Below, one piece after another: positions 2,400 through 50,382 of a stretch of DNA of 64,000 nucleotides (positions are counted from its first letter, which is position 1; every line of letters starts with the position of its first letter). This DNA comes from a virus. The position numbers and the translations under genes were made by a program. Below the pieces are notes generated by a model. That model was not told where the DNA came from and searched no databases. It saw only the letters and a list, made by a program, of their open reading frames with translations. Where the stretch lies: IMG/VR virus record IMGVR_UViG_3300030616_000002, positions 1 through 64,000 of that record, one strand, 5' to 3'.

Positions 2400-3377
2400 C
2401 CGTATCGCATCCGTGACTGGGACAATAATTTTGAGAACGCGAGATCTAGAGCTATAGAAAAATGCAAATGGGTACCGATGCCGAACAAGCAAGACGGAAT
2501 GGGATTTACTCGCGTCATAGCAGAGCCGGACGGGGCCGCGATCTACGGCATCTGGTGCCTGATCGTCGGCGCGTGCTCAAGGCAAAAGGCAGAGCGCGAT
2601 GGCTGGCTAACAGACGACGGCTTGGAGACCGGAGCCCCGTGGACCGCGAGTGATCTTGCCCTACGCTGGCGGCGACCACTGGAGGAGGTTGAGCGGGCCC
2701 TGGCGTTCCTGTCGAGCGATAAAATCGGATGGATCGAGGCTATCGGCGAAAGTCACCAAAACGATACCCGGGCGATACCTGGTACCGCTCAAAGCGACAC
2801 CCGGGCGATACCCAGTACCTCTCGGGCGGCACCGGATGGATCCTGCCTATCCAGATCAGGAATAGAAGGGAAGGAAGGGAATAAGTACTCTGTCAAAGCG
2901 CAAGCCGTCTTTGAGTGCTGGAAAAACGAAATGGGCAAGGCCCCCAATACGAAGTTCAAGCCGAAATCCAAGAGATACAAAAATGTAGTCGCTAGAATCA
3001 AAGACGGGTTTTCAGTAGAAGACCTCTGCTTGGCCGTACTAGGTTGCAAGAACACGCCGCACAACATGGGCCAGAACGACCGCAGCGAGAAGTACAACGA
3101 CCTGGAGCTTATCTGCAGGGACGTTGAGCACGTAGAGCGCTTCATAGAAAAAGCTACGGGCCAGGACGGCGAGGATCAGGATGATTGCTGGACCGCAGCA
3201 ACAAAAGAATTGATAGCTCTCTGCGAGTCCCGGGAACTGAAAGCGAAGATCGGAACGGCATCGAAAGAAGCGCAGCAAGTCTGTAGCAAGATCGGACTCT
3301 CGAAACTAGAGGGCCTAGACATGGCATCGGCACGAGGGGCGATCTACTCGGTCGCAGATCGGCTAGCCGGCAAATGA
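2397..3377 (+). CDS. replication initiation / replisome-organizer-like protein
   Basis: 326 aa, immediately upstream of dnaB and overlapping it by ATGA. The C-terminal segment VFECWKNEMGKAPNTKFKPKSKRYKNVVARIKDGFSVEDLCLAVLGC resembles the conserved C-terminal domain of phage DnaD-like/replisome organizer proteins (recalled, not searched). Confidence 0.5.
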   Translation: MPYRIRDWDNNFENARSRAIEKCKWVPMPNKQDGMGFTRVIAEPDGAAIYGIWCLIVGACSRQKAERDGWLTDDGLETGAPWTASDLALRWRRPLEEVERALAFLSSDKIGWIEAIGESHQNDTRAIPGTAQSDTRAIPSTSRAAPDGSCLSRSGIEGKEGNKYSVKAQAVFECWKNEMGKAPNTKFKPKSKRYKNVVARIKDGFSVEDLCLAVLGCKNTPHNMGQNDRSEKYNDLELICRDVEHVERFIEKATGQDGEDQDDCWTAATKELIALCESRELKAKIGTASKEAQQVCSKIGLSKLEGLDMASARGAIYSVADRLAGK

Positions 3378-4693
3378 ACGATAGGATACCGCGTAGCGAA
3401 ACCGAGGAGCGAGCAATACTCGGGATCCTACTGTACAACCCGCAGATAATGGATGATTGTATCGAGCTTGCACCGGAGGATTTTTACGTCGCAGCGCACG
3501 GCCGCATTTACAGGAGCATGCAGAAACTCTGGCGCGATGGAGTCCATTTCGATCTCCCTGCCTTGTGGGAGTCGATCAAGGATGATCAGGGCGTTGTTAG
3601 TCTGGGCGGGGCGAAGTACGTTGCGCGGCTCCTTAACGACTGCGTCGCAGAGGTCACAGCACCGAAACACGTAGAGACGATAAAAACGTTATCCAGGGAT
3701 CGGACGCTACTAGAAGCGGTAGATATTTTTAGGTCGGATATCTTGAACGGAAACGCAGAGCAGGCGGTCTCCGGGATGCAAGCGGCCCTCGCCGATTCTA
3801 TGCGGGCTAGTAGGGTTACGTGGTCGACCGTAGGCGAGATGGCATCGAAGCGGGCGCAGGAAATCGAGGATCTGCTTACAGGGGAGGCTCAGGGAACATC
3901 GTTTTTGCCGACCGGGATCCCGGGGCTAGATGCGAAGATCGCCGGATGGGCTGCCGGGGATCTGATCTATATTGCAGCGAGGCCAAGCGTTGGAAAGACC
4001 GCAGCGGCGATCCAGTCTGCTGTAGAGGTCGCGCAGCGAGGACACCCCGTAGCCTTCGGCTCCGCCGAGATGTCACGGGATGCGATCATGAATCGCATCC
4101 TTGCCTACAAGACCAGGTTTGAGCACCGGAGTATCAGGCAGAACGATCTGCGGGTTCTCCGCGATGTACAGATACCAGCGCTGAAAACGGCAGAGGAGCT
4201 GTATGATGTCCCGATGTATGTTGACGATCGCTCGGCCCTGAGGCCCGCCGACTTATGGTGGCTGGCCAGGAAATGCGAGCGGCGGTGGGGATCGTGTGCT
4301 GCTATTTTTTGCGACTATATCCAGCTCATGCGGCCGAACAAGGGCAATGAAAGCAAAGAGCGTGAGGTCTCATCTATCAGCGCTGACTTGAAGGCGATAG
4401 CGAAGGATCTCAATGTCCCGGTAATCGCACTCTCGCAGTTAGGGCGGGACGTAGAGAAGCGGGTAAAGAAGGGCCCGCCGATGCTCTCGGATCTCAAGTG
4501 GTCCGGCGATATCGAGCAGGACGCTGACGAGATCCTTTTTCTCTGGACGAAGGACGATACCGACCGCGACAACATCGAGGTCCGCCTAAAAGTAGGCAAG
4601 CAGCGTAACGGCCCGCTGGGTACCGTATATCTGCGATTCGACAAGCCTACGCAGACCTTTGCAGCAGAGGAGAGCCGTTATGAGATTGCGTGA
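3374..4693 (+). CDS. dnaB: replicative DNA helicase DnaB
   Basis: 439 aa. N-terminal ERAILGILLYNP..., Walker A ARPSVGKTAAAIQ, and DYIQLM, LSQLGRDVE, GDIEQDADEI motifs typical of DnaB. Confidence 0.9.
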   Translation: MNDRIPRSETEERAILGILLYNPQIMDDCIELAPEDFYVAAHGRIYRSMQKLWRDGVHFDLPALWESIKDDQGVVSLGGAKYVARLLNDCVAEVTAPKHVETIKTLSRDRTLLEAVDIFRSDILNGNAEQAVSGMQAALADSMRASRVTWSTVGEMASKRAQEIEDLLTGEAQGTSFLPTGIPGLDAKIAGWAAGDLIYIAARPSVGKTAAAIQSAVEVAQRGHPVAFGSAEMSRDAIMNRILAYKTRFEHRSIRQNDLRVLRDVQIPALKTAEELYDVPMYVDDRSALRPADLWWLARKCERRWGSCAAIFCDYIQLMRPNKGNESKEREVSSISADLKAIAKDLNVPVIALSQLGRDVEKRVKKGPPMLSDLKWSGDIEQDADEILFLWTKDDTDRDNIEVRLKVGKQRNGPLGTVYLRFDKPTQTFAAEESRYEIA

Positions 4694-4704
4694 CACAAAG
4701 TTTC

Positions 4705-4735
4705 TTGACTTTCCAGGCTAGCTAGGCTAGGCTGG
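4705..4735 (+). promoter_or_regulatory. candidate promoter B with CTAG-box
   Basis: TTGACT (4705-4710), 17 nt spacer, TAGGCT (4728-4733). Overlaps GGCTAGCTAGGCTAGGCTGG (4716-4735). Confidence 0.45.
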
Positions 4736-4746
4736 CTTGCGGGCTT

Positions 4747-4758
4747 TGCAAATTTGCA
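4747..4758. promoter_or_regulatory. perfect 12-bp palindrome TGCAAATTTGCA (copy 2 of 5)
   Basis: Read directly. Lies 14 nt after the promoter B -10 candidate and 12 nt before ATG 4770. Confidence 0.65.
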
Positions 4759-4769
4759 TGGGGGCTAAC

Positions 4770-4904
4770 ATGGCGGACGAAAAAGAGCGCGACAGGCAAG
4801 AGCCGAAACGCGAGCCCGCGACCGAGCGCGACTGGGAGTACCAGCGCGACCGGGCCGACCGAGACTACCCGGCAGACCCGCACGATCCGGAGGGCAACGG
4901 GTGA
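4770..4904 (+). CDS. small charged ORF (44 aa), hypothetical
   Basis: Own translation: MADEKERDRQEPKREPATERDWEYQRDRADRDYPADPHDPEGNG. Its stop overlaps GTG 4901 (GTGA). Too short for the ORF track. Confidence 0.3.
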   Translation: MADEKERDRQEPKREPATERDWEYQRDRADRDYPADPHDPEGNG

Positions 4905-5485
4905 GATACGAATCCATCCTGATCGACTGCCACTCGACAGCGAACGGTCTGAAGCGGGCGAGGACCAGAGGGGCAGCCGTAGTAGAACTACACAGGATCC
5001 TGGCCCTACTAGCCGGTCGCTATCTGGCGGGGGGCGGCCCGGGAATCGCGATCTACGGATCTGGGGATGGCCTACGCCGAGACGTAGCAGACACTGCCCA
5101 GCATTTAGGCCTGCCATTGGTGACGGGAAGGCTACAGGATCAGTTGCTGTTAGCGCTAGTATCGGACCATGCGAAGCGCGGTACAAGTTGCCTGATCGTG
5201 AGCGACGACCTCGGGGCTGCAGCGCACCTGGCAGATACCCCAGTACCGATCCACTGGCTAGAGGGCGTGACGGATACGCAGCGGCTCTGGACGCTGGCGG
5301 GGTTCATGCGACAGGGGCACGGCCGACCATTCGCCCAGAGCGACGGCAACGGCAGAGGGACGATCATAATCACAAGGCCGAGGGCAGATCTACAAGCACA
5401 TAGATGGTGGCTCGCCTCGTGCGGGGCGGAGGCGGCGTTGATGCCGGACTGCTGGCGGCGAATAGAAAGGCTGGCCCGTGACTAA
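4901..5485 (+). CDS. hypothetical protein (possible NYN/LabA-like fold)
   Basis: ORF track, 194 aa. The pattern ILIDCHSTANG ... CLIVSDDLGAAAHL is reminiscent of NYN-domain proteins; this is a weak call. Confidence 0.45.
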   Translation: MRYESILIDCHSTANGLKRARTRGAAVVELHRILALLAGRYLAGGGPGIAIYGSGDGLRRDVADTAQHLGLPLVTGRLQDQLLLALVSDHAKRGTSCLIVSDDLGAAAHLADTPVPIHWLEGVTDTQRLWTLAGFMRQGHGRPFAQSDGNGRGTIIITRPRADLQAHRWWLASCGAEAALMPDCWRRIERLARD

Positions 5486-6158
5486 CGAGCGATTGACCGG
5501 TCCGAGAACGCCCGAGGAAGACGGGCTGATTGTCTACGGGATCGACCCCGCGTCTCTGGGCGCGTGGCCCGATTTCGCCGACCGCGAGATCCGGGATCCT
5601 GCGCTGCCCCCAGACGTGATCCCGCGAGTAGAGGAGAGGCCGGATGGGACCGACTTGGACGCGCTGATCGACAAATATCTGGCCTACGAAGAGGATCGCT
5701 ACGTGATCCGATTCGCGTTACGGGGCAAAGGGCCGGCGGAGATCTCTGCTGCGTTCGATGCTATCGGCTGGCCGTGTCCAAAGGGTACGATAAAAGAGCG
5801 GCTCAACAAGTCAGTCGCGGTGTTATCCGCCGCCTACAAACTAGAGTGCGTAGACCGAGAGATCCGCGTATCGGCGTTGACCGAAAAGCAACATGCGATC
5901 TGGCGGTACTACCGGGCGGGCGAGACCTATCGGGGGATAGCCGAGGCGCTGGGATGCGGGACGCGCTTCGCCTTCGAGCAGATGGCTACGATAACCGAGA
6001 ATCTGCGAGCGGCCGGCTACGGCGAGATCGTTGACGCCGTAGACGCGCTAAGAAAAGCGATGGCCCCTGGGGGCCGAGGAAACATAAGCCGGATTAGTCC
6101 GGACGGAGGACACGATGGAGCCACATCCGATAGCGGGACTGTTCCCGCCGCTTCCTGA
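5478..6158 (+). CDS. HTH protein (LuxR / sigma-70 region-4-like C-terminal half)
   Basis: 226 aa. LTEKQHAIWRYYRAGETYRGIAEALGCGTRFAFEQM looks like a region-4 type helix-turn-helix. Confidence 0.4.
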   Translation: MTNERLTGPRTPEEDGLIVYGIDPASLGAWPDFADREIRDPALPPDVIPRVEERPDGTDLDALIDKYLAYEEDRYVIRFALRGKGPAEISAAFDAIGWPCPKGTIKERLNKSVAVLSAAYKLECVDREIRVSALTEKQHAIWRYYRAGETYRGIAEALGCGTRFAFEQMATITENLRAAGYGEIVDAVDALRKAMAPGGRGNISRISPDGGHDGATSDSGTVPAAS

Positions 6159-8842: not shown

Positions 8843-9056
8843 GAGGACAGCATTCGACGACGAGCGCGCGGTCCCTCGTTGTTCTGCGGTCGGAGACTTG
8901 GAGTGGACGCTGCGCTACGGATATCCGACGCGGGACGACTTGTTGTTTGCGGCGTCGGTGTGCAATGTCTATACCACCATGTGCCTGGCCCGCAACGTAA
9001 AGCAGTTCAAGGCTATCGTTGATTTAGCCATGACGGAGGAGGTGGACCGTGGGTGA
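8835..9056 (+). CDS. hypothetical protein
   Basis: Tail of ORF 8697..9056. Start reassigned to the motif-defined GTG 8835 (MGKRTAFDDE...). Ends EEVDRG. Confidence 0.5.
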   Translation: MGKRTAFDDERAVPRCSAVGDLEWTLRYGYPTRDDLLFAASVCNVYTTMCLARNVKQFKAIVDLAMTEEVDRG

Positions 9057-43208: not shown

Positions 43209-43518
43209 CAACACTATCCCCGTCGAGCCCGGCCTGTGGTGGATTCGGCGAGGCGACTCGGTTCGGATTGCGGCGTTCGCGCACATCCCGCGGGTTATCG
43301 GCGAGACGCTTACCGAACTTTGCTGCGCAATAGAGCTTTACATCGCAGATGATGGGTACGCCGTGAATTTGGAATTTCCAACCGACAGAAAAGAGCGGCC
43401 TATGGCTCCGATGGAATGCGATATAACCGTACGCAAGACGCCGAGGGATATGTTCCGCGAGGGCGTTCGGTTTATCAGGCCGGCTGAGCCGTACGCGGAG
43501 GCCCTGCGCGATGAATGA
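43201..43518 (+). CDS. hypothetical protein (tandem paralog 2, PGLWWI...RDE)
   Basis: In frame with ORF 43156..43518, from ATG 43201. Shares the junction sequence GAGGC.(A/C)TGCGCGATGA with the previous gene. Confidence 0.5.
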   Translation: MSSNTIPVEPGLWWIRRGDSVRIAAFAHIPRVIGETLTELCCAIELYIADDGYAVNLEFPTDRKERPMAPMECDITVRKTPRDMFREGVRFIRPAEPYAEALRDE

Positions 43519-43615
43519 CGCCCCGGCAATCGCAGACACGTTCGGGCTGCTGGCGCTCGTTATCGCTATCGTCCTGATCTATATGTACAACAAGTACCCA
43601 CCGGAGAGCCCATGA
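43511..43615 (+). CDS. hydrophobic micro-ORF (34 aa)
   Basis: Own translation: MNDAPAIADTFGLLALVIAIVLIYMYNKYPPESP. The start lies in the repeated junction, and the stop overlaps ATG 43612. Confidence 0.35.
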   Translation: MNDAPAIADTFGLLALVIAIVLIYMYNKYPPESP

Positions 43616-43794
43616 AACGAAGAGAATCCGAATTCTGCGGACTGATCAACATGAGGGTCCGATTCAACGGCGAGGGGCATCCGCTCTGCCACTGGTACGA
43701 GGACGGTAGGTGCAAGCGGCAAAGCGGGCGCTGCGTACTGGAGCGGTTCGTGGAGCCCCTAGAGAGGGACAGCAAGAGGAGGCTTTTAGGGTGA
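43612..43794 (+). CDS. small Cys-containing basic protein
   Basis: ORF track, 60 aa. Confidence 0.4.
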   Translation: MKRRESEFCGLINMRVRFNGEGHPLCHWYEDGRCKRQSGRCVLERFVEPLERDSKRRLLG

Positions 43795-44522
43795 GCTACA
43801 TCGAGAATCCCAAGACCGCGGGCTCCGGTGTTATCGGCGCGATCCCGCACGCGGGCCTATGCCCTAACGGCTGTAAGGACTGCTTCTTTAACCGGGCCGA
43901 TGGATACCTGCACCCGCTCTCCGAGAACCTGCCCAACATGCCGACGCCAGATCAGGCAGAGGGTAGGGTAGTGCGCGTCAACGACGGCCACGATTCCAAT
44001 ATTGACCGCGAGATGGTCATGGAGGCGTGCAGGCCCTACGCGCAGAAGTTCTACAACACCAGTATCCCGCGAGACCTCGGCGGATTCGACGCCCCGGTCG
44101 TGCTTACGGTCAACCCGGGGGCCAAGACGGACAAGGGCTGGCACCGGATAGATCCGATCCCGCCGAACCTGATGTTTGTCAGGGTCCGCACGAATATGTG
44201 GAACCTCTGGCTTGTTGACGAGGTGGTGGACTACTACACGGAGCGCGGCGTATCTGTAGTGCTTACTTTTATGGCCTACTTTGAGCAGCCGATCCCGGTT
44301 GAGCACAAGCTAAACTATATCTCTAGGACGCGAACGATCAATCGCTACATGGCGATAACGACCGATGCGTGGCGTTGGGTAATGAAGCGCTACGAAGACA
44401 ATGTTTTGGTTTACTCCTGCGGCAAGATCGAGGGCGAGCGCGGGACTACGAAGTGTAGGTATTGCGGAAACTGTGTCCGGGAGTTCCACTCCGCGCAGGA
44501 GAGGCTAGCTAGGCTAGTATGA
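43791..44522 (+). CDS. Cys-motif protein, possible radical-SAM-like/Fe-S enzyme
   Basis: In frame with ORF 43710..44522, from GTG 43791 (GTGA overlap). GLCPNGCKDCFF is CxxxCxxC but lacks the aromatic residue before the third Cys. C-terminal CRYCGNC. Confidence 0.35.
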   Translation: MSYIENPKTAGSGVIGAIPHAGLCPNGCKDCFFNRADGYLHPLSENLPNMPTPDQAEGRVVRVNDGHDSNIDREMVMEACRPYAQKFYNTSIPRDLGGFDAPVVLTVNPGAKTDKGWHRIDPIPPNLMFVRVRTNMWNLWLVDEVVDYYTERGVSVVLTFMAYFEQPIPVEHKLNYISRTRTINRYMAITTDAWRWVMKRYEDNVLVYSCGKIEGERGTTKCRYCGNCVREFHSAQERLARLV

Positions 44523-44731
44523 GAAGCGAGATCATCACGGGCGACGTAACGGAGGTGCTAGCCGGTATGGCTGCGAAGTCGGTACACCTGTGTATCACGT
44601 CTCCACCGTACTGGGGGCTGCGGCAATACTTAGTTGACAACGCGGTTTGTTTGCGCCACGATTTGACGGAAGATGAGGTAGCGTTCGTCACAAAGGAGCT
44701 TGAAAAACATGGCGTCAAACCGAAACTCTGA
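44519..44731 (+). CDS. DNA N4/N6-methyltransferase, N-terminal fragment (motif IV SPPY)
   Basis: 70 aa. CITSPPYWGLRQY (to 44629), then an unrelated tail and a stop. The conserved enzyme sequence resumes at about 45298. Confidence 0.65.
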   Translation: MRSEIITGDVTEVLAGMAAKSVHLCITSPPYWGLRQYLVDNAVCLRHDLTEDEVAFVTKELEKHGVKPKL

Positions 44732-45297
44732 TGGTACGTTCAAAAAGGGCAGTCATTGGCGAAAGCCGAAGCTATACTGGAATAAGAAGTGGCTTCTACG
44801 CGAGTACGTCACCAAGCAGCAAAGCGCCAAGGAAATTGCAGATCACGCCGGATGTTCCGAGAACAGCATTTTTAACTGGTTAACAAAACACGGCATTAGG
44901 CGACGTTCTATTTCCGAAGCGCGTTCAATTAAGTATTGGGGAGCACAAGGATCAGCCAATCCAATGTTCGGTCGTTGCGATAAGGCTAATCCAAATTGGC
45001 GCGGTGGTGTCTCGCCGGAACGGCAGAAGTTGTATGCACGCTCAATGTGGAAGGCGATCAGAAAGGCAGTGTTCTCTCGGGACAATTTCTCTTGCCGCCG
45101 ATGCGGAGAAAAACCAGTCGGGCACAAGCAACTTCACACTCACCACCTAAGAGCATGGGCTAGAGACCCCGCGTTACGATTCGACGTGGACAATATCATT
45201 ACTCTGTGCCGGGGATGTCACGAGTGGATTCACAGCAAGGAGAACAAAAACCGTGAATTTCTGGAGTAAGGACGAAATACCGATCCACCTTCAGGAG
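44630..45297 (+). mobile_element. HNH endonuclease insertion 1 splitting the methyltransferase gene
   Basis: Bounded by a duplicated TACTT (44627-44631 and 45298-45302). Visibly lower GC. Contains the HNH ORF with its own SD. Confidence 0.55.
44709..45269 (+). CDS. HNH homing endonuclease
   Basis: In frame with ORF 44700..45269. ATG 44709 follows AAAGGAG. CRRCGEKPVGHKQLHTHHL...NIITLCRGCHEWIH is an HNH motif, and the N-terminal part has an HTH-like segment (SAKEIADHAGCSENSIFNWL). Confidence 0.8.
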   Translation: MASNRNSDGTFKKGSHWRKPKLYWNKKWLLREYVTKQQSAKEIADHAGCSENSIFNWLTKHGIRRRSISEARSIKYWGAQGSANPMFGRCDKANPNWRGGVSPERQKLYARSMWKAIRKAVFSRDNFSCRRCGEKPVGHKQLHTHHLRAWARDPALRFDVDNIITLCRGCHEWIHSKENKNREFLE

Positions 45298-47235
45298 TAC
45301 TTTAGGCCGGCACCGCAACTCGGCCTTGAGCCGGTCCACGACTGCCTCGGCTGGGCAACCGGCAACCGCTGCGGCGAGTGCTACGTGTGCAGGATGGTCG
45401 AGGTGTTCAGGGGCGTGTGGCGAGTGCTGCGGGACGACGGCCTGTGTTTCGTCAATTTGGGTTCGTCCTACGCTTCGCGTGATATGCCTGCCAGCCAGTC
45501 TCGCCGCGCTTGGAGTGGATTCTCATGTGGCAGCGATGACACAGAACGATCAGATTCTGGAGACTCTGATCGCGCTTGTCCCCATTGCGATGGTGAACGT
45601 CAAGCCGACTCTCCGATCCATCGTGACCGCACTCCTCGCACTGGCCAACAGCATGGCGCAGACGAGCCGCCCCCTTCGCTGACAGTCCATGATAACGCGC
45701 AAGAGGATTCAGTTTCAGCATCTCCTGGCGCTTCTCCTCCCTGCGCTCCGGGGTCCAGAACTCCTGTTTCATGTACTGCGAGTGCTTCGGACGCTTCCGA
45801 CCCCGCATGTGCGGTCGAGGTTTTCCTTTTAAGCGCTCAGACATCTTCTTCCGCCACGCGCCAGTGCGCTCATACGGTTGAACGCAATTCCGGCAAACCT
45901 TCGCTTCAGCCGATTTCGGCTGACCACACTGCGGGCACGGCACCTTCTTCCTTGGCATGTCATTCTCCTTTTGGTAGCGCTTCCAAAACATGCCCATATT
46001 ATAGCACCACGCCCCCTGGACTCAAGCAAAAAGACCTGAGCCTGATCCCCGCCCGCGTAGCCCTCGCCCTACAGGCCGACGGGTGGGTTCTGCGATCCGG
46101 CATCACGTGGGCCAAGGGCGTCTCGTTCTGCGAGCACTACTCGGGATCGGTCATGCCCGAGTCAACCCGCGACCGGCCTACCAGCGCATCGGAAATGATC
46201 TGGATGCTGGCCAAGTCGAACACGGCCCAGTACTGGACGCACCGCGACCTGCCCGGCACGAGAACGAAGCCGAAGCCGGATTATCGGTACGTGCACGCGA
46301 CAGGAGCAGAGCAGGTCGAGGAACCGGACAACTGGAAGACGAGCAAGGTGCTCTGCCCGGCGTGCGGCGGATCGCGCAAGGTCACGGTGCAACTTGAGGG
46401 AGACCTGATCGGCGAGACCGTGATCCCCTGCGAGCTGTGCAAGGGCAAGAAGGGCTCGATGGTTCCGGAGTGGAAGCGGATCAATCTCTGGCAGGGGCAC
46501 GATTACTACTACGATGGTGAGGCGGTGCGGGAAGCATACAAGATGTCATCTTGGACCGCGAAAACAGACAGCGAAGGGTCAACCAAGCGCGGGAAAGACG
46601 GCATTAGAAGCGGAGGAAAAGGAGCGGCACGAGCAGAAGGCGCGGCAGACGGATCGACCTACGGATCAACGTCGATGCAAAAGGCATACAGCCACGGCGG
46701 CCGCAACCTCCGCAACGTGTGGACACTGAACCCGCAGCCCTTCGCGGAGGCGCACTTCGCGACCTTCCCTGAAAGCCTCGTACGACCTTGTATCCAGGCG
46801 GGGAGCAGCGAGCGGGGCGTGTGCCCGGAGTGCGGGGCTCCGTGGTCCAGAGTGGTCGAGCGCGGCGAGCCAGACGACGAACAGCGCAGCGCTTGCGGGG
46901 CGGACTCGACCGGAGGCTATTCGGGGCAGGCAACCAAGAACTACGCAGCGGGTAGGGCTGAAGATCCGAGCGCAGTCAAGGCGCGGATTCTGGAAGGCAT
47001 GCGCGAGCGCCGCACGGTGGAATGGAGACCGACCTGCGGGTGCGAGGCAGGGGCCGTCGTGCCTGCGACTGTGCTAGATATGTTCGCCGGCAGCGGGACC
47101 ACGCTGCTGGTAGCCGAGAAGCTCGGGCGTGACAGCATCGGCATCGAACTCAATCCAGAGTACGCGGACATGGCACGGAAGCGGATAGAAGAGGGAACAA
47201 AGCAGGGAGACCTGCTGCTAGGGAGGGCGCAATGA
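45253..47235 (+). CDS. DNA N4/N6-methyltransferase, main part, containing a ~178-codon in-frame insert antisense to a second HNH gene
   Basis: 660 aa. VFRGVWRVLRDDGLCFVNLGSSYAS, then a low-complexity insert, then KDLSLIPARVALALQADGWVLRSGITWAK...PESTRDRPTSASEMIWMLAKS...NVWTL...HFATFPESL...VLDMFAGSGTTLLVAEKLGRDSIGIELNPEY. AAGGAG (45237-45242) precedes GTG 45253. Confidence 0.7.
   Translation: MNFWSKDEIPIHLQEYFRPAPQLGLEPVHDCLGWATGNRCGECYVCRMVEVFRGVWRVLRDDGLCFVNLGSSYASRDMPASQSRRAWSGFSCGSDDTERSDSGDSDRACPHCDGERQADSPIHRDRTPRTGQQHGADEPPPSLTVHDNAQEDSVSASPGASPPCAPGSRTPVSCTASASDASDPACAVEVFLLSAQTSSSATRQCAHTVERNSGKPSLQPISADHTAGTAPSSLACHSPFGSASKTCPYYSTTPPGLKQKDLSLIPARVALALQADGWVLRSGITWAKGVSFCEHYSGSVMPESTRDRPTSASEMIWMLAKSNTAQYWTHRDLPGTRTKPKPDYRYVHATGAEQVEEPDNWKTSKVLCPACGGSRKVTVQLEGDLIGETVIPCELCKGKKGSMVPEWKRINLWQGHDYYYDGEAVREAYKMSSWTAKTDSEGSTKRGKDGIRSGGKGAARAEGAADGSTYGSTSMQKAYSHGGRNLRNVWTLNPQPFAEAHFATFPESLVRPCIQAGSSERGVCPECGAPWSRVVERGEPDDEQRSACGADSTGGYSGQATKNYAAGRAEDPSAVKARILEGMRERRTVEWRPTCGCEAGAVVPATVLDMFAGSGTTLLVAEKLGRDSIGIELNPEYADMARKRIEEGTKQGDLLLGRAQ
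45452..45997 (-). CDS. HNH endonuclease nested antisense within the methyltransferase ORF
   Basis: 181 aa. CPQCGQP...CRNC zinc ribbon plus CEECGHDGSESRLDVHHRNGDKRDQSLQNLIVLCHRCHMRIH (HNH). On the minus strand, TTGAGT, 16 nt spacer and TATAAT (46003-45998) abut the ATG. Confidence 0.75.
   Translation of the reverse strand: MGMFWKRYQKENDMPRKKVPCPQCGQPKSAEAKVCRNCVQPYERTGAWRKKMSERLKGKPRPHMRGRKRPKHSQYMKQEFWTPERREEKRQEMLKLNPLARYHGLSAKGAARLRHAVGQCEECGHDGSESRLDVHHRNGDKRDQSLQNLIVLCHRCHMRIHSKRGETGWQAYHAKRRTNPN
45478..46011 (-). mobile_element. HNH endonuclease insertion 2 (antisense, keeps host ORF in frame)
   Basis: Lies between the conserved methyltransferase blocks NLGSSYAS (ends 45477) and PPGLKQKDL (starts 46012). 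Confidence 0.5.
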
Positions 47236-47483
47236 GCGAAGGATCAAGCACGTCGATCTCCGAAGATCGGCCTACGGTCTATACGTTCTCGACCACGGAT
47301 ATAGGCGAGGCCAAGCGGGCGCTCAACGCAGTCGCGCTAGAGGGTATCCTTTGGGATCTAGTAAACGAAACCCGCACCTGGCTCAAGCACGGGCACAGCT
47401 TCGAGGACGCGGACAGCGCAATAGAGGCGATCCGCCAACGTATCTTTGACGAACTCGCGGAAGCGGGGATCGTCCTTGGCTGA
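47232..47483 (+). CDS. hypothetical protein
   Basis: ORF track, 83 aa; ATGA overlap. Confidence 0.5.
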   Translation: MSEGSSTSISEDRPTVYTFSTTDIGEAKRALNAVALEGILWDLVNETRTWLKHGHSFEDADSAIEAIRQRIFDELAEAGIVLG

Positions 47484-47696
47484 CCAGAATAGGGCGCGCG
47501 GAGACGCATTTCCGAGCCCTGGCGCACTCGCCGCAGAGTGGGCCGCGCGCCACACCTCTCACCGCTCTGCGGACCTCCGAGGGAATGGGCAGCCGGTCCG
47601 CCAGCCCGAAACAATGCGCCAGACACCGGCACGCTGGGCCGCGTCAACGAGGGCGCGGCCTAGCTCTACAAAAGAGGGGCTAGAGAGAGAGAAGCT

Positions 47697-48647
47697 ATGA
47701 AGCGCAATGTTGAGATAGCAGCAGAAATGGCGCAACGCTTGATCGAATACGCCGAGAGCGACAAGAACAAGCCGATCAGAAAGTACAAGCCGCCCAAGCG
47801 AGACCGTAGCAAATCGGCAGACGAGGAAACCCTGGTTCTACTTCATTCGGACAGCCAGATCGCACACCTTACGCCAACCTACAATTTCGAGATCTTCAAA
47901 CAGCGCAACACAAGGCTGGTAGAGAGAACCCTGCGGGTCGCGGACCTTGACCGCAAGGGCCGACCGATCAACCACGTCGAGCTGTTCTTGCTCGGTGATA
48001 TCATACATGGAGAGCGGGTAGGTAGGACCGTCGACCTTGATGAGCTAGAGGATACGGTTGCCGTTGCCATGTTCGACGTGGCGCTGCCGGGCCTCGAATA
48101 CGTAATAAACAACCTCGCACAGAATTTCAATTCTGTTGGAGTTCGTTGCGTCCGCGGCAACCACGGGATCGTGAGCAGGGACAACGCCCTTACGACCAAC
48201 TGGGACTATATAATCTGCAAGATCTTGGAGCGCGAGTATCGCAACAACCCGCACGTCAAGTTCTCTGTACCGAGTACGTTCTACCATATTCAGGACGTGA
48301 TGGGCTGGCGGTTCTTCCTTGCGCACGGGGACAAGATCAACATGTGGATGAACGTCCCGATCTACGGGATCGTCCAGAAGCTCATGCGCTGGGCCGGCAG
48401 TATCGGCGCGTTCGATTACGCCACGTTCGGCCACTTCCACAACCACGCGGACATGGACTGGAACGACAAGCGCTTTTTCATCAACGGCAACTTCACAACA
48501 GATGACCAGTGGGCGATCAAGACGCTCGGGCTCAAGGGCTCGTGCTCGCAGATGTTGCTTAACGTGCACCGGAAACTCGGGGTCGTCAATCAGCGGAAGA
48601 TCCACCTTGAGCAGTTCGAGCGTAGGACAAAGCAGGAGGCGTCATGA
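47697..48647 (+). CDS. calcineurin-like metallophosphoesterase
   Basis: 316 aa. LLHSDSQIAH, LLGDIIHGE, VRGNHG, LAHGDK and GHFH are the metallophosphoesterase signature blocks. Confidence 0.75.
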   Translation: MKRNVEIAAEMAQRLIEYAESDKNKPIRKYKPPKRDRSKSADEETLVLLHSDSQIAHLTPTYNFEIFKQRNTRLVERTLRVADLDRKGRPINHVELFLLGDIIHGERVGRTVDLDELEDTVAVAMFDVALPGLEYVINNLAQNFNSVGVRCVRGNHGIVSRDNALTTNWDYIICKILEREYRNNPHVKFSVPSTFYHIQDVMGWRFFLAHGDKINMWMNVPIYGIVQKLMRWAGSIGAFDYATFGHFHNHADMDWNDKRFFINGNFTTDDQWAIKTLGLKGSCSQMLLNVHRKLGVVNQRKIHLEQFERRTKQEAS

Positions 48648-49267: not shown

Positions 49268-49674
49268 AGATCATCCGCCCCCCTCGCAGGATCAGCGTCG
49301 AGAGGCTAAAGCAGATCCACTACCACATTGACGTGTGCCACGGGCCCTACGGATCGCAGTGCGCCAACGGACACCGCTACGAGCCACAGGTCAGGACCAG
49401 CGATCAGGGAGAGCAGACGGTAGAAAAGCCTCCGCCTGTAGGTGTCCCGTGCCCGAAGTGCGGGGAGACCCTGGAGCGCGGACCCGAACGGTTCGTCGCG
49501 TTCCTGTATCGCGGCGGGCTGGACCTAGAGGCTCATGAGGCGCTGGGCGAGTGCTTGGACGTAGGCCCGGCCCGCAGCACGCAGGCAGAAGCGGCGGCAG
49601 ACGCCCGCGACATGGAGGACAGGCACGTGGGCAAGGGCAAGCGGCGGCACTTCCTGGTTACGGGGATCGCGTGA
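49264..49674 (+). CDS. hypothetical protein (zinc-ribbon CPKCG)
   Basis: ORF track, 136 aa. Confidence 0.5.
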   Translation: MKIIRPPRRISVERLKQIHYHIDVCHGPYGSQCANGHRYEPQVRTSDQGEQTVEKPPPVGVPCPKCGETLERGPERFVAFLYRGGLDLEAHEALGECLDVGPARSTQAEAAADARDMEDRHVGKGKRRHFLVTGIA

Positions 49675-50382
49675 GCTGGGAGATCATCACCGGCGACTGC
49701 CTCGACTGGCTGCGGGAGCGCGAGGCGGGGAGCGTCGATGCGGTGGTGACGGATCCGCCGTACGGCACAGGGGCATGGAAAAGACAGACTAGCGGTGCGG
49801 GAAGCGATCCAACGGCGAAACTAATCCGCGAAAAGTGGGACGTGTGGACAGAGGACTGGATCGAGCAAGCGCGGCGAGTAGCGAGGTGCGCCTTTGGTTT
49901 TTTTATCCCGTGGTCAGTCCGCCTAAAGAAACCCACGGGGGGGGGGGCGACTGTTCGTTTGGATTAAACCAGATCCTAGACCGCGGGCTGGCGGACAGCC
50001 GGCGTATGGCTTTGAGCCGTTCTATCTCGCAGGAAAGGTTCAGAACATCGGCGGGAATGATTGGTTTGAACACACGGCGCCTCGGCTCAATCGCGATCCA
50101 GAGGCGACAGGACACCCGCATCAGAAGCCCGTTGCTGTCATGGAGTGGCTATTGAGGTTAGCATGTCCTGTCGGCGGGTCTGTTCTTGATCCGTACTGCG
50201 GCAGCGGTAGCACGGGCGAAGCCGCTGTGAGGCTTGGGCTTGATTTTATCGGCATCGAGATCAACCCCGAGTATGCCGACATCGCCCGCGAGCGGTGCGC
50301 GAAGGCAGAGAGACAGCCTGACCTGTTCGTCAAGCCCCCGAAGCCCGAGCAGCTAGAGATAGGGACATATCCTACCCCTTAA
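49671..50382 (+). pseudogene. DNA N6-adenine/N4-cytosine methyltransferase interrupted by a +1 frameshift at a G11 tract (possibly phase-variable)
   Basis: Frame 1 (GTG 49671): VVTDPPYGTG... stops at 49965-49967. Own translation of the next frame from 49948: RLFVWIKPDP...GHPHQKPVAVMEWLL...VLDPYCGSGSTGEAAVRLGLDFIGIEINPEY, running to 50382. Removing one G would fuse them. Confidence 0.7.
49937..49947 (+). repeat. G11 homopolymer at the frameshift point
   Basis: Counted directly in acccac-ggggggggggg-cgactg. Confidence 0.9.

Follow-up and report, generated by a model that had tools for sequence, protein, structure and literature searches.

Two HNH endonuclease genes in one phage DNA methyltransferase gene: one splits its host, the other is nested antisense in an open host frame

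The subject of this study is a DNA methyltransferase (methylase) gene at 44519-47235 on the plus strand of a 64,000-nucleotide (nt) stretch of viral DNA (the window; positions 1 to 64,000 of IMG/VR record IMGVR_UViG_3300030616_000002, in whose coordinates all features are given). The gene is interrupted at two places, here called gap 1 and gap 2, which contain the HNH endonuclease genes HNH1 and HNH2, respectively. It is proposed that these are probably two unrelated genes of the homing-endonuclease type residing in one phage methylase, each sparing its host in a different way: with HNH1 the methylase would be made in two pieces, and HNH2 lies on the opposite strand of an insertion through which the host reading frame stays open. 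Comparison with other loci indicates that both elements are recurrent families at fixed sites of the methylase family and not one-off invasions; the window is the only locus among those examined with both in one methylase gene. The double interruption had been noticed in an original prediction made from the letters of this stretch, and the map of open reading frames (ORFs) and the uninterrupted homologs agree with its placement of the ORFs. Comparison loci are designated by L-numbers (L001, L058, L066-L069 and so on) and catalogue proteins by P-numbers.

Most of the host gene consists of a 660-amino-acid (aa) ORF (45253..47235, plus strand, GTG start) that matches the Pfam family N6_N4_Mtase (PF01555) with 91.4 bits against a cut-off of 26.7 (E = 1.1e-25). 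The motif order is that of the beta class, with TSPPYW in a separate 70-aa N fragment (44519..44731, plus strand), which aligns to the N terminus of uninterrupted homologs, and FAGSGTT at about residues 611-617 of the 660-aa ORF. Among solved structures, 2ZIE, CcrM, M.MboIIA and N4-cytosine methylases are the nearest; SPPY is commoner in N4-cytosine enzymes, which is not decisive for the base specificity here. The methylase is preserved in three plus-strand blocks: the native part of the N fragment with catalytic motif IV (TSPPYWGLRQY, 44519-44629), a middle block with motifs V-VI (APQLGLEP...CLGWATGNRCGECYVC...VFRGVWRVLRDDGLCFVNLGSSYAS, 45310..45477; placed by homolog alignment, with a predicted local distance difference test (pLDDT) score of 81-92), and a C-terminal core (46012..47235) with GLKQKDL, motif VII/VIII (MPES..DRPT), zinc-ribbon inserts and the S-adenosylmethionine-binding (AdoMet) motif I (FAGSGTT). 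Joined conceptually, these blocks retrieve thousands of homologs, and those aligned are continuous across both gaps. Gap 1 separates GLRxY, with which motif IV ends, from GQ(L/I)GLE; gap 2 falls in the variable linker from NLGDSYA to GLKPKDL between motifs VI and VII, where the motif-to-motif spacing is usually 40-60 residues and is 192 in the window. The alignment that the original prediction had suggested for defining the insertion sites at nucleotide resolution thus places both gaps, but the boundaries are known only within a few codons because no recent insert-free allele was found.

Gap 2 (45478-46011, 534 nt) is in frame and stop-free on the plus strand, so that its 178 codons are read through within the 660-aa ORF. 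On the minus strand the same DNA carries HNH2, an ORF of 181 aa (45452..45997) with the core CxxC...HH...N...CxxCH. From the N terminus it consists of a CxxC...CxxC zinc ribbon, a linker of helices and the HNH core at the C-terminal end, and its AlphaFold model (pLDDT 84) likewise has an N-terminal zinc ribbon, helices and a beta-beta-alpha core. The identification of gap 2 as a minus-strand HNH gene, already made in the original prediction, is supported by profile matches at the level of the family: HNH_3 in 31/36 members, HNH in 29/36 and NUMOD3 in 12/36 (best E = 1.4e-10), with C107, C110, H122, H123, N135, C140, C143, H144 and H148 invariant.

The signals around HNH2 indicate an autonomous gene with its own promoter. 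The best promoter-like site in the region is TTGAGT-16-TGcTATAAT on the minus strand (46025..45998; TTGAGT-16-TATAAT with a TG extension, 10/12 matches). The original prediction had recognized this site and taken it to abut the start codon, suggesting a leaderless or near-leaderless transcript. The promoter stands, but the start does not: the conserved N terminus of the family, MP(R/S)(K/P)K, corresponds in the window to the ATG at 45958 (MPRKK...), giving a protein of 168 aa (45452..45958, minus strand) in an ORF that is open up to 45997, and a Shine-Dalgarno sequence, AAGGAG, lies 6 nt upstream of this ATG (45970-45965). Because the start is at 45958 and not at 45997, the transcript would have a leader of about 35 nt, and the window copy is led by a Shine-Dalgarno sequence. 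Leaderless transcripts are instead the likely mode of a first subclass of the family, with the start codon 5-6 nt past the -10 element and no Shine-Dalgarno sequence; a second subclass, which includes the window, has a 23-50-nt leader with one. A strict pattern, TTGnnn-N16-19-TAnnnT, is found in 23/36 of the family upstream regions compared with 6% of shuffles, and across the family a TTGAnn -35 followed by an extended -10 (TGnTAnAAT) is found repeatedly in this position.

Both ends of HNH2 reach into conserved host codons. The -35 element is antisense to methylase codons for (L/F)K(P/Q)K family-wide (G-L-K in the window), and the last 8-9 codons of HNH2 and its stop overlap methylase codons for VNLGSSYAS. 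At this place (45461-45477 in the window) insert-bearing methylases, including those of L001, L003, L008, L010 and L058, mostly read NLGSSYA(S), and insert-free ones read NLGDSYA; as these codons are antisense to the last residues and stop of HNH2, the nuclease ORF seems to change a conserved host motif. The HNH2 protein of the window is missing from a catalogue of 5.8 billion proteins in which the 660-aa methylase (P0001) and HNH1 (P0121) of the same 94-kb contig are present; gene callers therefore evidently drop the nested antisense gene.

Relatives of HNH2 were gathered by pattern searches derived from the HNH2 alignment, which gave 34 metagenomic and about 20 viral loci, selected on HNH2 similarity alone and not on an open host frame. 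Matches 110 aa or longer came from 58 loci; in 55 of these, the phase in which methylase codon position 1 faces HNH codon position 1, as in the window, is fully stop-free, and those ORFs have SPPY and NxGDxY upstream and KDLxxxP, MPES and DxFxGSxT downstream. After removal of duplicates, 47 distinct HNH2 sequences remained (maximum 78% identical, median 53%), and 46 of them, among relatives 27-72% identical, have no stop in this phase; 4.7 stops per sequence are expected by codon shuffling and 3.0 by synonymous resampling, with mean probabilities of an open frame, P(open), of 0.018 and 0.059. The open frame persists in relatives with a guanine-plus-cytosine (GC) content of 41-49%, where 5-10 stops are expected, and a scan of species-representative genomes added four loci, all in metagenome-assembled genomes and all with the same arrangement (4/4). 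For HNH2 of the window, P(open) is 0.003 by codon shuffling and 0.023 by synonymous resampling, and none of 218 segments of 181 codons from the other genes of the window is open in this phase. These comparisons argue that the host frame is preserved by selection across the whole HNH2 family.

What is selected differs between the strands, as seen in the closest relative of the methylase, P0002, on the 224-kb contig L001. It has an orthologous minus-strand HNH gene at the same site and an open plus-strand frame (603-aa ORF), and the DNA shared by the two genomes is confined to methylase modules. The inserts differ by indels of only 3 and 12 nt; their identity is about 70%, rising to 83% for the full aligned stretch that includes the flanks. 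In the HNH frame the identity is 72.5% at the aa level and the ratio of non-synonymous to synonymous rates (omega) is 0.175, whereas in the host methylase frame over the insertion the values are 44% and 1.4. This contrast implies that the constraint on sequence falls on the nuclease, and that for the host frame it is enough to stay open. Purifying selection is seen in the methylase flanks, where non-synonymous differences per site (pN) are 0.07-0.14 and synonymous differences (pS) 0.38-0.48. In the AlphaFold model of the 660-aa ORF the methylase core has a pLDDT of 80-96, and the insertion (residues 74-255) falls below 50 with almost no secondary structure; its peptide, which includes ACPHCDGER, is low-complexity and not conserved. 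On the simplest reading of this model, the insertion would be translated as a disordered surface loop. Examined as a possible intein, gap 2 reads RDMPAS...TTPP, without splicing blocks, a Pfam match or a folded Hint domain. In L025 (HNH2 match 1467-1934), two stops fall in the N-terminal zinc-ribbon region, the rest of the gene is intact from an internal Met and the methylase frame is open; this may be a partly degenerated endonuclease within a still-selected host gene.

The distribution of HNH2 is patchy. Among the close methylase homologs, about 92 have a linker that can be measured, and in only 4 of these does it contain a long insertion; nearest-neighbour analysis finds carriers and non-carriers interleaved. 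Distances between HNH2 proteins are essentially uncorrelated with those between methylase cores (r = 0.22, R2 = 0.049, 561 pairs); the window and L009, for example, are 64% identical in HNH2 and 33% in the methylase. These distances show the histories of HNH2 and the methylase to be decoupled, which points to mobility of HNH2. Between the window and L001, the segments adjoining HNH2 are 79-83% identical at the nt level (pS 0.38-0.48) and the distal C terminus only 53-65% (pS 0.70-0.78, near-saturated), a gradient as expected if co-conversion, or recombination centred on the element, has taken place. Patchiness, the low R2 and the identity gradient are together consistent with homing, in which insert-free alleles would be cleaved and the element would spread. 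In cultured phages a single weak match to HNH2 was found, from Geobacillus.

Gap 1 is built differently. HNH1 (186 aa, 44709..45269, plus strand) matches the Pfam family HNH (PF01844; E = 2.3e-8, 34.5 bits against a cut-off of 21.4) and retains the zinc and catalytic residues (CRRCG...HTHH...NIITLCRGCHEWIH). It lies in a different frame and overlaps its neighbours on both sides, the N fragment at its end and the C fragment at its start. The native part of the N fragment ends in ...ITSPPYWGLRQY and is followed by 33 further residues, a cassette-encoded tail (44630-44728, plus strand; LVDNAVCLRHDLTEDEVAFVTKELEKHGVKPKL, including DLTEDEVAFVTK), and then TGA. HNH1 has its own Shine-Dalgarno sequence, AAGGAG at 44693-44698. 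A second AAGGAG (45237-45242), within the HNH1 3' end, precedes the GTG at 45253, from which the C fragment begins with a leader peptide (45253..45309, plus strand; VNFWSKDEIPIHLQEYFRP, including DEIPIHLQEYFR). GC is 0.45-0.55 in gap 1 and 0.60-0.67 in the flanks, and deletion of 671 nt restores a single frame reading LRQYFRPAPQLGLEP. The original prediction had described the out-of-frame HNH gene with its ribosome-binding site, the lower GC, the upstream fragment ending at its own stop (44731) and the AAGGAG-led GTG inside the HNH1 3' end, and all of these hold. It had also pointed to TACTT at both borders. The two copies are present (44627-44631 and 45298-45302), but the repeat is uninformative: its downstream copy is part of HLxxYF, a leader motif seen again in L058 at a different methylase site and beside a different upstream exon, and a target-site duplication was rejected for this reason.

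The same layout, N fragment with tail, HNH1, then leader with C fragment, is found in all four relatives whose contigs were examined (L066-L069; HNH1 55-68% identical). Their upstream part is a fragment of about 70 aa, ...SPPYWGLR(Q/S)Y followed by the tail LFDNAVxLRYDLTxEExxFVxKELEKHGVKPxx and a stop, and the C fragment begins inside the HNH1 3' end with the leader (V/M)xFWxxxxIPxxL(K/Q)(Q/E)YFxPAPQ(I/L)GLE. Both extensions are under purifying selection, with pN/pS of about 0.3-0.4 for the tail and 0.25-0.3 for the leader (pN 0.18-0.29 against pS 0.5-1.0 for both). An exhaustive search with the 70-aa query among 50% cluster representatives found many proteins of 65-105 aa that match residues 4-69, tail included, in dozens of small-protein clusters, whereas long methylases match over residues 3-50 only. 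The other 119 listed methylase homologs, most of them uninterrupted, have no motif resembling the tail or the leader; these homologs and the representative search reject the tail or leader as an ordinary part of uninterrupted methylases. The tail was also considered as a degenerate copy of a helix of the downstream exon, to which its resemblance is weak. The recurring layout and the small-protein family imply that the two-polypeptide methylase is a widespread, stable arrangement.

Given the conserved extra peptides under purifying selection, the absence of any Rfam match and the lack of a junction register with intron boundaries, gap 1 is best regarded as a genes-in-pieces arrangement and not an intron, as the original prediction had favoured. 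The Rfam scan, which it had proposed, covered 43500-48500 at E <= 1 and returned nothing, a large ORF within an intron being known to reduce covariance-model sensitivity. The six registers permitted by the 5-nt TACTT ambiguity include none with a group I (U...G) or group II (GUGYG...AY) boundary, and the HNH1 ORF takes up all but about 100 nt of the insert. Each half of the methylase has stop or start signals of its own, and both are under purifying selection. HNH1 has 21 relatives in the protein catalogue and only remote ones in cultured phages; a peptide-pattern search of IMG/VR gave no match. A relative with 46% identity stands free in L071 (1342-1962, minus strand), directly upstream of and overlapping the start of a methylase (L071 53-1465), and the same is seen in L072, so that the HNH1 family occupies two positions, beside the methylase gene or inside it. 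The methylases of L071 and L072 lack HNH2 and have a TGG-TGA-CCA-TGG insertion in motif IV. An endonuclease gene next to a likely target that contains a short coding-gap-like insertion is, by analogy, reminiscent of the T4 mobA/gene 60 cassette (bioRxiv 10.1101/2022.08.31.505936).

The two devices meet in L058, whose methylase (3057-5856, minus strand) has an HNH2-like antisense gene with 38% identity (4001-4543, plus strand). The gap-2 site is occupied, but the host frame has two stops, and a ParB-like/methylase fusion is split into two ORFs. The upstream fragment ends in ...NMGSSYASQADDMMEVRADLTNKERAYVLRGLAECSRR and a stop, with a tail, RADLTNKERAYVLRGL..., that resembles the tail of the HNH1 cassette; the downstream fragment starts with ...LRETEIPKHLRKFFRPCGVKPKD, and its leader, ...EIPKHLRKFFRP, resembles the HNH1-cassette leader, the motif (I/V)PxxLxx(Y/F)F being common to L066-L069 and L058. 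As judged from its sequence, L058 is thus an exception that supports the read-through rule, since here the host frame has stops and the methylase is split instead. The tail/leader pair therefore occurs with two unrelated HNH genes, in either orientation and at two methylase sites (the window and L066-L069 versus L058). It is possible, though we hold this only tentatively, that the tail (...LRxDLTxEExxxVxxELxxxGxxP) and leader (...IPxxLxxYF(R)P) form a portable "reassembly kit" carried by endonuclease cassettes, through which an enzyme that they divide could still come together.

The following scheme is proposed for the window. The HNH1 cassette, sitting just after motif IV, would bring a stop codon, the HNH1 gene, and a fresh ribosome-binding site with its start codon, so that the methylase would be made as two polypeptides, one of 70 aa with SPPY and one of 660 aa with the remainder. 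The cassette tail and leader, which may mediate association of the fragments, would help the pieces to reassemble into one enzyme. The 534-nt insertion occupies a variable surface loop that separates motifs VI and VII. At its edge HNH2 has a promoter of its own, from which it would be transcribed on the opposite strand, and the host ribosome would translate through the insertion in the methylase frame to give a disordered loop of about 178 residues. Selection at the level of the phage would keep the host frame stop-free, with the HNH2 protein evolving under its own constraint. The two-piece, loop-bearing methylase is presumed to be active, and HNH1 and HNH2 would each cut alleles that lack the insert and spread by homing.

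Several observations weigh against parts of this scheme. HNH2 of the window lies just below the profile cut-offs (Pfam HNH 20.9-21.1 bits against 21.4; HNH_3 21 bits). Its model gives only weak, partial Foldseek matches (best E = 0.035); the best of them are HNH nucleases (McrA, Cap5, Gme nickase, PacI and I-HmuI), a result that is supportive of the fold, not decisive. The low pLDDT of the insertion may partly reflect a shallow alignment there. No recent empty-site allele was found, the methylases compared being at most 73% identical in their cores. HNH1 has diverged about as much as its host methylases, with no sign of recent mobility, and on this comparison long vertical co-inheritance is as likely as ongoing mobility. 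A 178-residue loop and a split beside the catalytic motif could in principle abolish activity, and selection for an open frame means that translation matters, not that methylation occurs.

Among other explanations, HNH2 might no longer be, or never have been, a homing element, but a stably nested partner of the methylase, as in a compact restriction-modification or addiction-like pair whose methylase would give protection from the HNH nuclease, or an antisense gene that would regulate the methylase through convergent transcription. Every full-length HNH2 relative was found inside this methylase family at the same site and phase; the family is old (median identity 53%), under purifying selection and equipped with a conserved promoter of its own, and a fixed nested position guarantees co-inheritance of nuclease and methylase. 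We nevertheless consider this unlikely, because the insertion is rare among close methylase homologs (4 of about 92), methylases with and without it are interleaved and the two sets of distances are uncorrelated; zinc ribbon, NUMOD3 and HNH are the make-up of modular homing endonucleases, and the cost of a 178-residue junk loop is easier to explain as tolerated parasitism than as design. It is very unlikely that the gap-2 insertion is instead removed after transcription or translation, as an unrecognized intron or intein-like element, to leave a mature methylase without the 178 residues. Its in-frame position adjoining conserved residues is intein-like, and the same question has been raised for the ShiLan domain (PMC11855218). 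Against this, the host-frame peptide has an omega of 1.4 and 44% identity between orthologs and is predicted to be disordered; it has no intein blocks, starts with RDMPAS and lacks C/S/T at position 1 or an HN-C/S/T junction; no Rfam match was found; and the frame, open in 46 of 47 lineages, would not have to be free of stops in an intron.

A compact self-splicing intron of group I or II at gap 1, with HNH1 in a loop and the 70-aa and 660-aa ORFs incidental, is highly improbable. Such a reading would account for the continuous frame that a 671-nt deletion restores, with its 5-nt TACTT ambiguity, and HNH genes of phages are often intron-borne (PMC3428280). It leaves unexplained, besides the missing Rfam match, the missing boundaries and the mere 100 nt or so outside the HNH1 ORF, why the flanking extensions are conserved as peptides (pN far below pS), with conserved stop and start signals that no intron requires. 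We find it scarcely credible that two mobile genes lie in a methylase that is a decaying pseudogene, whose open frame would follow simply from a GC-rich composition. In favour of this are the two interruptions, a second methylase of the window that also lies in two frames, and the fact that antisense frames of GC-rich genes are sometimes open; but P(open) is 0.003-0.023 in the window and about 0.02-0.06 on average over 47 divergent relatives, of which 46 are open, including those at 41-49% GC with 5-10 stops expected, the methylase flanks have pN of 0.07-0.14 against pS of 0.38-0.48, and the ortholog indels are of 3 and 12 nt. The preferred reading thus remains that of two homing-endonuclease-type genes, one in a split and one in a read-through host.

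The nearest published parallel to HNH2 comes from mycobacteriophage methylases and is called the ShiLan domain (Gosselin et al. 2023, PMC9957025; Arsenault, Gosselin & Gogarten 2025, PMC11855218). This insertion of 202 aa is in frame and without stops, and its third frame on the same strand encodes an HNH protein of 195 aa. Neither an intron nor an intein, it is predicted to form an outward loop and has a patchy distribution, with R2 values between element and methylase distances of 0.001-0.12 (PMC11855218). The gap-2 insertion is likewise an in-frame, stop-free insertion of about 200 codons in a phage methylase, neither intron nor intein by any detectable signature, with a predicted loop that possibly spares the methylase, an HNH gene in another frame, a patchy distribution and uncorrelated distances. 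Unlike the ShiLan HNH gene, which is on the same strand and without recognizable expression signals, HNH2 is on the opposite strand with a conserved promoter and a Shine-Dalgarno-led or leaderless start. The sites differ as well: the insert in phage Mantra is in a DPPY-type methylase between repeated EP(V/I)VVARKP motifs, whereas HNH2 is in an SPPY-type enzyme between motifs VI and VII. Mantra itself has both a ShiLan-type insert with a sense-frame HNH_3-like ORF and an uninterrupted SPPY-type methylase like that of the window. A tblastn search with HNH2 found no match in any mycobacteriophage record; Rando14 gp63, considered as a further hidden insertion, was rejected, being a methylase with a C-terminal HNH-like fusion. 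Because strand, expression signals, site, methylase subfamily and HNH family differ, the HNH2 element is an analogue, not a homolog, of the ShiLan domain. The original prediction had called antisense nesting in an open host frame an unusual form of invasion. Unusual it is, but the concept has been published for the sense strand (PMC9957025; PMC11855218), and no literature on antisense or nested HNH genes in methylases was found beyond that precedent; PMC11855218 does not mention antisense cases and leaves open the expression of the hidden nuclease. New here are the antisense orientation, the own promoter, the different site and the different HNH family.

The HNH1 arrangement has its parallel in the genes of T4-like phages split by homing endonuclease genes: mobE in nrdA of Aeh1, mobA in T4 gene 39/60 and seg in gene 43 of phage 25 (PMC2988022). 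In both, a nuclease gene lies inside a conserved enzyme gene whose halves are translated separately and must reassemble, and signs of translational coupling accompany the overlap of the endonuclease ORF with the ORFs beside it. The window differs in that the host is a DNA methyltransferase split directly after its catalytic motif, the layout is widespread and not confined to a single phage, and the conserved tail and leader of the cassette recur beside a different HNH gene at a different site (L058). Inteins with homing-endonuclease domains are also in-frame insertions at conserved sites of enzymes and are translated with the host protein, but gap 2 lacks splicing blocks, its nuclease lies outside the host-frame polypeptide, and the latter is unconstrained (omega 1.4) and presumably retained. 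Long antisense overlapping gene pairs are described in bacteria and phages (e.g. bioRxiv 10.1101/2020.11.18.388249); HNH2 resembles them in having two long opposite-strand ORFs over about 500 nt, both apparently translated. It differs in being a well-known, ancient fold under purifying selection opposite a frame selected only to stay open, and the evidence is comparative, across about 50 divergent loci.

Other insertions were observed in related methylases. Tiny stop-containing insertions lie inside catalytic motif IV in L001, L002, L008, L071, L072, L010 and L028: TAC TGG TGA GCA TGG GGC (SPPYW-stop-AWGLRDY) in L001 at 8957-8977 and likewise in L002; TGG TGA CC(G/A) TGG in L008, L071 (1242-1267, minus strand) and L072 (6419-6444, minus strand); a 6-nt insertion, CCA TAG CTG TAT, in L028; and a 7-nt insertion that shifts the frame, TAC [TGATTAG] TGG, in L010. 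Downstream of the insertion, L001 and L008 differ by 6 synonymous and 0 non-synonymous changes in 12 codons, and the long ORF is intact. The W-stop-X-W arrangement, with matched "take-off" and "landing" codons around the stop, resembles a miniature translational hop; read-through, a further split or a scar that immunizes the target site are alternatives. A methylase homolog of 732 aa, P0087, matches LAGLIDADG_3 (PF14528), which suggests an intein or another endonuclease insertion. It would seem that this methylase family is a hot spot for selfish nucleases in general, as has been reported for actinophage methylases (PMC9957025).

The remainder of the window is that of a tailed phage, with genes for DnaB, large terminase, portal, sliding clamp, exonuclease and prohead protease. 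A near-identity DNA search of cultured phages with the locus gave no match and thus no close reference genome. A second, DPPY-type methyltransferase has blocks at 49671-49763 and 50098-50352 (plus strand) in differing reading frames (ORFs 49551..49967 and 50140..50382); its homolog in L001 (3972-5021) is a single 349-aa ORF. The window copy may be a pseudogene with a frameshift, a shorter variant of the enzyme or one more interrupted methylase.

To our knowledge, homing endonuclease genes have been thought to persist inside genes only by way of self-splicing introns or inteins, or else between genes. The window and about 50 related loci point to two other solutions within one gene, antisense nesting with read-through and a split with junction peptides. 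HNH2 offers a clean and statistically strong natural case of long antisense overlap, with the strands under different kinds of selection, and is a warning for annotation, as gene callers miss nested genes of this kind. Its own promoter offers an answer to the puzzle of how the nuclease hidden in the ShiLan domain is expressed. If their role in assembly is true, the junction peptides may be useful as natural split-protein tags; and if the "reassembly kit" is real, it would, together with read-through and the motif-IV insertions, mean that selfish nucleases have at least three non-splicing ways of residing inside coding sequence.

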